A program made the position numbers and the translations under genes. Shown here piece by piece: positions 38,720 through 39,631 of a stretch of DNA of 64,000 bases. Each line of letters begins with the position of its first letter. Position 1 is the first letter of the stretch. The stretch comes from a virus (taxonomy: Duplodnaviria > Caudoviricetes), in the IMG/VR virus record IMGVR_UViG_3300037721_000043, positions 4,162-68,161 of that record; one strand, written 5' to 3'. A model generated the notes under the pieces. The model was given only the letters and a program-made list of their open reading frames with translations, was not told where the DNA came from and searched no databases.

Positions 38720-38748
38720 AAAAAAGCCCCGGCATGCATGCCGGGACT
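38720..38748 (-). terminator. Intrinsic terminator closing the ncRNA locus
   Basis: AGTCCCGGCATGCATGCCGGGGCT followed by TTTTT on minus. Confidence 0.75.
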
Positions 38749-39011
38749 AATGGTTGGATAGGTTTTAACAAAACCCATACTGTTGGAGACTGCTTTAAGA
38801 CTGAATCTTTTATCTCCTGCCACCCGGCCAGTATGGGCTGAATCTTTAATGCCACATTTGTAATTAACCCGCGCGATCAAACGGGGTTTAGGTTGAAAAA
38901 GCATCTTGGATTCACAAGTTCTCGGCCCATGCACGATGCCCGTACTGGGACTTATCCGCCATGGTGCCAAAGGTGCATCACTACCGACTCTTAATCGGTC
39001 GATTGCCTTCC

Positions 39012-39081
39012 TGGTGGAGTATAGTGAGTCGAACACTCCTTACATTGATCGTGCACACACAATGCAATCCCCGGTTACCCC
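39012..39081 (-). ncRNA. 70-nt tRNA-Ala/tmRNA-TLD-like RNA with encoded CCA
   Basis: GGGGTA/TACTCC acceptor stem with G3-U70, discriminator A, CCA; T-arm AGTG-TTCGACT-CACT; no D-stem; 8-bp TTGCATTG/CAATGTAA stem. Confidence 0.65.
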
Positions 39082-39086
39082 ATTAT

Positions 39087-39161
39087 AAAAAACGCCAGGC
39101 AACAAACGACATATGTCTTTATCCATAAGCGAAGTAACACATATCTACGGCACTGGCGTTT
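39087..39161 (-). ncRNA. Large-loop hairpin with 3' U-tract
   Basis: AAACGCCAG/CTGGCGTTT 9-bp stem, inner ATATGT/ACATAT stem, then T-tract. Confidence 0.5.
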
Positions 39162-39163
39162 AG

Positions 39164-39373
39164 CTGAGGGAACAAGATTCGAACCTGTGTAGATACTACG
39201 ACGGTATCACGTGTTCCCGCTTTCATATTTATGGTACTTTCCAGAATCGACTTTCGCGCTTTTAAGGCTTTTGCCGGGCAATTACTCCGACACCTACGAT
39301 CTATCTGTTATGCCCATTACCACCTGCACATCTCACGACATGCCGGCGCCGACCGCCACTCGGCTGTCCCTCA
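39164..39373 (-). ncRNA. 210-nt tRNA-Ser-like RNA with large internal insertion
   Basis: 7-bp acceptor TGAGGGA/TCCCTCA, D-arm GCCG-AGTGGCGGT-CGGC, T-arm ACAGG-TTCGAAT-CTTGT, discriminator G; 159 nt between D- and T-arms. Confidence 0.65.
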
Positions 39374-39378
39374 ATCTT

Positions 39379-39420
39379 AAAAAAAGCCGGCGAGTAAACC
39401 ATTACATAAACCCGCCGACT
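39379..39420 (-). terminator. 11-bp hairpin plus U-tract directly upstream of the Ser-like RNA
   Basis: AGTCGGCGGGT/ACTCGCCGGCT followed by TTTTTT. Confidence 0.6.
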
Positions 39421-39631
39421 AACCTCACCATAATGTCAAAAAAGCCAGGATTTAAGAGACACAGGATGGTCTCAGCGAATTGATAGGATTAAAATAGACG
39501 CTTATTCTGAATTTTGCCCAAACCCACCTGGCTTTAAACCCGCCCGTCCGGCAGATTTTACTTGGTCCGGAGAGAGAACCCAATCAACTCCCCGGATTTT
39601 CATTAACCCTCATCAATAAATCATGAACACA

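Follow-up and report, generated by a model that had tools for sequence, protein, structure and literature searches.

In a 64,000-nucleotide (nt) stretch of the 68-kb IMG/VR record IMGVR_UViG_3300037721_000043 (the window in what follows), which derives from an uncultured phage of the Caudoviricetes, the ~910 nt of minus strand between the stop codon of recT and the start of the next gene at 38708 form a conserved, strand-specific, modular structured non-coding RNA locus with units derived from transfer RNA (tRNA). The locus begins at the stop codon of recT (39632-40516, minus strand; Pfam RecT, E 5e-18), and its chain of modules spans window positions 38719-39600, read on the minus strand in the direction of recT, as are all the modules described below. 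Judged by its sequence, the locus appears to be a new, uncatalogued RNA family within a known kind, the large RNAs found beside phage tRNA genes. We think it somewhat probable that a small clade of uncultured ~70-kb phages keeps this interval as a dedicated non-coding RNA locus, whose modules would be released by the enzymes of tRNA maturation. An initial annotation of the window had listed hairpins, U-tailed stems and two tRNA-like RNAs in this interval; all of them were found on the minus strand where it had placed them, while one conserved hairpin (hairpin 2 below) had been overlooked.

RecT has ~120 homologues, many of them on phage contigs of 67-82 kb, and four more independent contigs, which come from related ~70-kb phages and are named L075, L004, L072 and L073 here (L073 is the same as L074), were found to carry the locus directly after their recT. 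Two of these, L075 and L072, stop at contig ends, L075 before the position of the second tRNA look-alike of the window. In some members of the clade recT is directly followed by a protein gene. No such gap follows recT in the distant RecT relatives L002, L005, L127, L128 and L130, and the non-coding stretches present in L006 and L124-L126 are not homologous to the window locus. A blastn search with the locus against 50,697 phage records gave no match, and a RecT-based scan of viral contigs yielded no further locus. Scans of viral and metagenome contigs with DNA patterns returned nothing, or chance matches as judged by blastn or by eye, and a RecT profile scan of species genomes gave one locus, with coding sequence after its recT.

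The locus has no conserved protein-coding capacity, in agreement with the initial annotation, which had seen no credible open reading frame (ORF) in it. ORFs do exist: the longest encodes 111 amino acids (aa) from a GTG start (38701-39036) and overlaps part of the 3' domain, called E below. It has no Pfam match, its reading frame is disrupted by insertions and deletions in L004 and L073, and no ORF of at least 40 aa is common to the homologous stretches, so that the unrecognized protein gene named at the outset as a possible refutation did not turn up. Identity of the window to L075 is 88.3% over the locus, as against 59.7% for the adjoining recT genes; the insertions and deletions within the locus, no one of which is a multiple of three, measure 1, 7, 8, 1, 1, 2 and 1 nt, and the substitutions fall near-equally on the three phases (16/16/23). 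The change in identity, from 60% in recT to 88% in the locus, occurs exactly at the recT stop (window 39632; L075:992), which suggests either the exchange of a module between phages or a far stronger constraint on the RNA locus. Of the paired cells counted, 12-16% are G-U, so the opposite strand would pair worse, which fits an RNA made in the direction of recT; this strand argument is biased in that the structures were predicted on the minus strand itself.

When the window was searched with all 4227 Rfam families, as the initial annotation had proposed, nothing reached the gathering score and no known family was matched; at E<=10 only terminator-like noise appeared. At E<=1 the five homologous loci gave the same kind of noise and, in addition, the two real tRNAs of L073. 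Default ARAGORN, also proposed at the outset, reported 0 tRNA and 0 transfer-messenger RNA (tmRNA) in the whole window, and it was in intron mode alone that the first of the two tRNA look-alikes was called.

The locus consists of a conserved 5' block, a slot of variable content and the 3' domain E. The 5' block and E co-occur in every complete copy, and what lies between them differs. In the window the slot holds a 211-nt tRNA look-alike, a long hairpin and a 70-nt tRNA look-alike, and L075 is apparently alike. L004 has the 211-nt element alone, the slot of L072 is empty, and that of L073 carries two tRNAs, a genuine tRNA-Ser(GCU) that scores 46 bits and an odd one, with the anticodon AAA, that scores 31 bits. 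Since the slot between the 5' modules and E varies in this way among relatives and holds real tRNAs in L073, the look-alikes are best described as tRNA-derived cargo in a variable cassette slot. The repeating unit of stem, U6, 5 nt and tRNA mimic that the initial annotation had read into the locus is not a conserved design: the leader before the tRNA unit measures 5 nt in the window, 17-29 nt in L004 and 4 nt in L073, and both spacing and slot content differ in every relative.

The 5' block opens with hairpin 1 (39566-39596), a stem UCCGGGGAG/CUCUCCGGA with the conserved loop UGAUUGRGUU, which is present in all 5 homologues with both-side changes at 3 pairs. It is followed by the conserved hairpin 2 (39535-39559; AAAAUCUGCC-GGACG-GGCGGGUUU), whose 10 pairs are 96% paired over 5 sequences, with both-side changes at 4 of them. 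Domain B (39438-39535) is enclosed by a closing stem AAAGCCAGG/CCUGGCUUU, invariant and 100% paired in the 5 sequences and followed by U6. Inside it lie the invariant GGGUUUGGG and an inner hairpin whose loop is YCCUG and whose stem differs in sequence from homologue to homologue but keeps its complementarity. Hairpin C with its U7 tail (39379-39420) has a stem of ~11 bp and the conserved GUAAUGGU in its loop; over the alignment it counts 13 pairs, 91% paired, with GC to AU and UA to GC exchanges. The 5' modules together (39379-39600) have a folding z of -3.3 against shuffles, and among the 49 pairs of the block 90.5% of cells pair in the 5 sequences. Both-side changes occur at ten pairs; the shuffled controls give 5.3 (0/500), and slid partners no more than 4. 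Two short repeats were also seen. GUAAUGG occurs in the loop of hairpin C (39397-39404) and again where the insert of look-alike 1 starts (39314-39320), and CCUAUC is found in domain B (39469-39474), in the tail of E (38757-38762) and, in L073, in the spacer that separates its two tRNAs.

The first tRNA look-alike (39163-39373, 211 nt), preceded by an AAGAU leader, keeps a 7-bp acceptor stem, a D-arm with GG (G18G19), a T-arm with the loop UUCGAAU, and G73. At the anticodon position there is a hairpin capped by GUGA (window and L075) or GUAAA (L004) and no 7-nt anticodon loop, and a folded domain of ~130 nt with six helices occupies the position of the variable arm. The 3' end reads GCCA in L075 and L004. 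Apart from the intron-mode call it escapes detection: default ARAGORN makes no call and no Rfam tRNA model matches it even at E<=10. The evidence for the structure comes from comparison of the three sequences, in which 58 pairs in 11 helices were found and 97% of cells pair; 10 pairs change on both sides, where shuffling gives 3.6 (0/500) and sliding no more than 1. The acceptor stem itself covaries, from UGAGGGA/UCCCUCA to UAAGGGA/UCUUUUA. The folding z of the 211-nt element is -0.86, which is thermodynamically unremarkable, and its support is the covariation. Its last 26 nt are identical at 20/26 positions to the tRNA-Ser(GCU) of L073, which occupies the same slot. We therefore regard look-alike 1 as a putative serine-type tRNA scaffold, predicted to be incapable of decoding because a capped hairpin replaces the anticodon arm and a six-helix domain fills the position of the variable arm.

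Between the two look-alikes lies a long imperfect hairpin with a U6 tail (39087-39161; AAACGCCAG...CUGGCGUUU) and a folding z of -3.87 (0/200 shuffles). It is absent from L004 and L073, and a copy that is ~87% identical occurs in L072 inside domain E, just upstream of an HNH gene; the long hairpin therefore behaves as a movable module. The initial annotation had described this element and domain B as large-loop stems. Both stems exist, but the first encloses the structured domain B and the second is a long, near-continuous hairpin.

The second tRNA look-alike (39012-39081, 70 nt), read from its sequence and its minimum free energy (MFE) fold, follows an AUAAU leader. Its acceptor stem has 6 bp (G1-C, G2-C, G3-U as G3-U70, G4-C, U5-A and A6-U). 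A73 and an encoded CCA are present, the T-arm has the loop UUCGACU, a D-stem is lacking, and a central stem closes a 12-nt loop. Together these features correspond to the set of alanine identity elements and trace the outline of a tmRNA's tRNA-like domain. No model of the Rfam tRNA/tmRNA clan matches it at E<=10, and the ARAGORN searches for tRNA and tmRNA found none (-m: 0 tmRNA). As to the tRNA shape that the initial annotation had claimed for the two units, both keep the acceptor stem, T-arm and elbow, but both are without an anticodon loop.

Domain E (38751-39011) is a 260-nt multi-helix domain defined by folding and by comparison of the window, L004 and L073. It starts with GGAAGGC at the very base after NCCA, whether that end belongs to look-alike 2 (window), look-alike 1 (L004) or the second tRNA (L073); E of L072 has the same GGAAGGC start though no tRNA lies upstream. 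From the 5' end the order is GGAAGGC, hairpin H1, a variable middle that serves as an insertion site, a conserved core (38771-38916) and the invariant tail ACCUAUCCAACCA. The core contains the invariant UUUUUCAACCUAAACCCCG, a helix CCCAUACUG/CAGUAUGGG and long invariant single-stranded runs. The variable middle measures 85 nt in the window and is longer by 150 nt in L004; in L072 it contains the hairpin mentioned above together with a 124-aa HNH_3 homing endonuclease gene (L072:2018-2392, plus strand; Pfam E 2e-10). This is the sole real gene inside any copy of the locus, and an exact look-up of its protein found no record. E folds with z of -3.79 in the window (0/200), -3.13 in L073 and -4.48 in L004, H1 shows both-side changes at 3 pairs, and the core is 97% paired, versus 29-44% when slid. 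E is predicted to be a closed unit because in independent MFE folds of the window and L004 copies its 5' GGAAGG pairs with CCUAUCC of the tail; in the fold of L073 it pairs with nearby bases.

At the end of the locus stands an intrinsic terminator (38719-38748) with a 10-bp stem of which 7 pairs are GC, a tetraloop and a U-tail. The terminator scan accepts 38725-38748 alone as canonical, the other U-tailed stems having interiors of 17 to 85 nt, and a counterpart of the terminator is present at the same place in L004 and L073. No internal promoter was found when the locus was searched for one, so that read-through from recT is probable.

From these elements we propose the following model. A transcript on the recT strand, probably continued from recT, would end at the sole canonical terminator. 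On it, a conserved 5' block would be followed by a variable cassette slot, open to tRNA genes as well as to tRNA-derived RNAs, and by the conserved, closed domain E, whose middle tolerates insertions, a homing-endonuclease gene among them. In the window, look-alike 1 would display its ~130-nt folded RNA at the variable-arm position. Host RNase P would cut on the 5' side of each acceptor stem and the 3' ends would be trimmed to NCCA, which would free the 5' block and domain E, and the tRNA-shaped RNAs between them, as separate stable RNAs. The tRNA shape would then act as a handle for processing and stabilization and not as a decoder. Candidate roles for the products are decoys for host factors that bind tRNA or tmRNA, or a structural RNA of the GOLLD/ROOL type. 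Processing is supported in that the look-alikes keep the features those enzymes read without the decoding part, that the NCCA|E junction is free of any spacer in three lineages, and that every module closes on itself. Release through RNase P and the 3'-end enzymes had already been suggested in the initial annotation, and we infer it indirectly from the self-closing modules and from the start of E right after NCCA in three lineages.

A more specific version of this model is tentative. The locus could be a new modular family in which the 5' block and E flank a cassette slot for interchangeable tRNA-type units, one of them a natural tRNA scaffold that displays a 130-nt folded RNA, and in which the closing helix of E (GGAAGG/CCUAUCC plus AACCA) directs the RNase P cut to the base right after the upstream CCA, with the released non-decoding shapes serving as decoys. 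The closing helix with AACCA may recall minimal RNase P substrates. If this were true, one cut would make both the mature 3' end of a tRNA-type RNA and the 5' end of the large RNA, and the targets of the decoys would be tRNA- or tmRNA-directed factors of the host such as synthetases, SmpB and anticodon-nuclease defenses.

Several points weigh against the release of separate RNAs by tRNA maturation. Transcription, RNA ends and processing are all deduced from DNA sequence, and a look-up of sequencing runs turned up the probable source DNA run but no run of RNA. There are only five sequences of the locus, and three for domain E. The initial annotation had proposed to collect recT-adjacent homologues and to examine their covariation, and in the four contigs obtained this bore out the 5' block and look-alike 1, but the covariation of the E core is weak and not significant (45/500), because this core is so highly conserved. 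Look-alike 1 of the window ends in GCUA and not GCCA. Look-alike 2 is a single instance, seen in the window only and without comparative support. The internal U-tailed stems could end transcription early, and promoters would then be required within the locus. Finally, domain B and the E core are complementary over 9 nt, which would favor one undivided RNA.

The last point belongs to the main rival explanation, in which the locus makes one undivided RNA of the GOLLD type, ~0.7-1.0 kb long, with the 5' block and E as its domains and the tRNA units displayed uncut in the linker. We consider this unlikely, yet a serious competitor. In GOLLD the 3' region is conserved, the 5' region is variable and less so, and the linker sometimes holds tRNAs; in the present locus the 5' block and E are always together whatever lies between them (0, 1 or 2 tRNA units). 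The invariant GGGUUUGGG of domain B (39519-39527) is complementary over 9 nt of the minus strand to the invariant CCUAAACCC of the E core (38884-38892), which is the best long-range match in the locus. One G-U pair becomes A-U in L004; in L072 both sides change and can pair with a bulge only. The match could be a long-range pairing or chance, and by our estimate about one such 9-nt complement is expected by chance at these lengths. Against an undivided RNA, independent folds show every module, and E among them, closing on itself, and no part of the locus is matched by an Rfam model, that of ROOL included; a direct search with ROOL RF03087 likewise found nothing at E<=10, though it did not pick up its controls either.

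It is doubtful that look-alike 2 is a tag-less mini-tmRNA, charged by alanyl-tRNA synthetase (AlaRS) or bound by SmpB, that would damp trans-translation of the host while the rest of the locus serves as carrier. The features in favor are G3-U70, A73, the encoded CCA, the UUCGACU loop of the T-arm and the lack of a D-stem. There is also a precedent: mycobacteriophage DS6A has a tag-less tmRNA that consists of the tRNA-like domain only, and such molecules inhibit tmRNA. Like it, look-alike 2 is phage-encoded, falls within ~70-85 nt, has an alanine-type acceptor and T-arm, and possesses neither an anticodon arm nor a tag frame. Unlike the DS6A molecule, it is recognized neither by the Rfam tmRNA models nor by the tmRNA search of ARAGORN, and its one instance, absent from L004, L072 and L073, cannot be the conserved core of the family.

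Still less probable is a decaying tRNA island, with look-alikes that are pseudogenes and U-tailed stems that are plain terminators, the sole function being to end the recT transcript. The slot does hold real tRNAs in relatives and the window has no functional tRNA, turnover of the slot is fast, and a homing endonuclease has entered the locus in L072. However, the locus is conserved at 88% versus 60% for recT, look-alike 1 with its 130-nt insert keeps 11 helices by compensatory changes in three phages, and long invariant single-stranded motifs are retained in E and B, which pseudogenes would not keep.

A DNA-level element (a replication origin or packaging site), an unrecognized protein gene or a self-splicing intron is very improbable: the HNH gene inside E of L072, as in many group I introns, and the 111-aa ORF over part of E would be in its favor, but that ORF is broken in two relatives and without a Pfam match, no ORF is conserved among the homologues, no group I or II intron model (Intron_gpI included) scores at E<=10, E lies between a complete NCCA end and the terminator with no split host gene around it, and the many G-U pairs make the structure strand-specific.

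The initial annotation knew of no described equivalent, which is incorrect, since GOLLD and ROOL, the RNAX of phage T5, the stable RNAs of T4 and the tag-less tmRNA of DS6A are close analogues. GOLLD and ROOL occur at phage tRNA islands and resemble the locus in being phage-borne, several hundred nt long and rich in helices; this is a likeness of kind, not membership. The locus differs from them in its self-closing modules, its remodeled non-decoding tRNA units and the lack of any evident shared sequence or fold, and its family, unlike theirs, is seen in five contigs next to recT only. Membership in GOLLD or ROOL was rejected when neither was matched among the 4227 Rfam families by the window or by the 5 homologous loci. 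RNAX of phage T5 (rnaX, T5s08) is 719 nt long, abuts tRNA-Arg without a spacer and contains an acceptor/T-arm look-alike. As is proposed for the locus, it is a long stable RNA contiguous with tRNA genes, with ends thus set by tRNA processing. RNAX lies 5' of its tRNA-Arg, whereas the large RNA of the window lies 3' of the tRNA unit, and host and phage group differ; homology was rejected, as the generic T-arm alone matches. The stable RNAs C and D of T4 lie in the tRNA cluster of that phage.

In its acceptor stem, T-arm and G73, in a D-arm of the GCCGAGUGG type and in having an arm where the variable arm belongs, look-alike 1 agrees with class II tRNA-Ser. It departs from that class by the missing 7-nt anticodon loop and by a variable arm of ~130 nt with six helices. 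Among bacterial tRNA-shaped RNAs that do not decode are YrlA, skipping-rope and DUF2693-FD, and the Rfam families of bacterial tRNA mimics gave no match in the locus. In engineered tRNA scaffolds for RNA expression, the tRNA frame lends processing and stability to an unrelated RNA. Look-alike 1 is unlike these in that it is natural and phage-borne, carries its insert at the position of the variable arm and keeps true tRNA connectivity. The remodeled serine scaffold is unusual, and suggests that phages may use the tRNA shape to carry other RNA functions.

GOLLD, ROOL and T5 RNAX are abundant large structured RNAs beside phage tRNA genes, none of them with a known function. The present locus offers a small, tractable case with clear module borders and with slot variants that are empty, hold real tRNAs or hold remodeled ones. 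The precise NCCA|GGAAGG junction makes the RNase P processing model directly testable, and the alanine-type minihelix would extend the tag-less tmRNA-like RNAs beyond one mycobacteriophage.

The first genes past the terminator (38371-38708, minus strand) are a 45-aa hydrophobic ORF with a weak DUF5489 match and a 71-aa ORF, joined by an ATGA overlap. In both L004 and L073 the locus is followed first by a counterpart of the 71-aa ORF, and a search for homologues of the downstream 71/91-aa protein recovered nothing but the protein itself. Other RNAs were seen after recT elsewhere in the clade. In L006 (4953-5098, plus strand) a tRNA-shaped RNA of ~140 nt stands right after recT, with the acceptor stem GUUGAUG/CAUCAAC, a D-arm, an expanded middle and the T-arm GUCGG-UUCGACU-CCGAC; it is called neither by ARAGORN nor by Rfam. 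The site after recT looks like a possible hot spot for RNA genes in this clade. Other hairpin-rich non-coding stretches follow recT in L124 (2836-3070 and 3930-4330) and L126 (1908-2170), and these include U-tailed stems with large interiors and a unit of ~170 nt closed by GGGAGGC/GCCUCCC.

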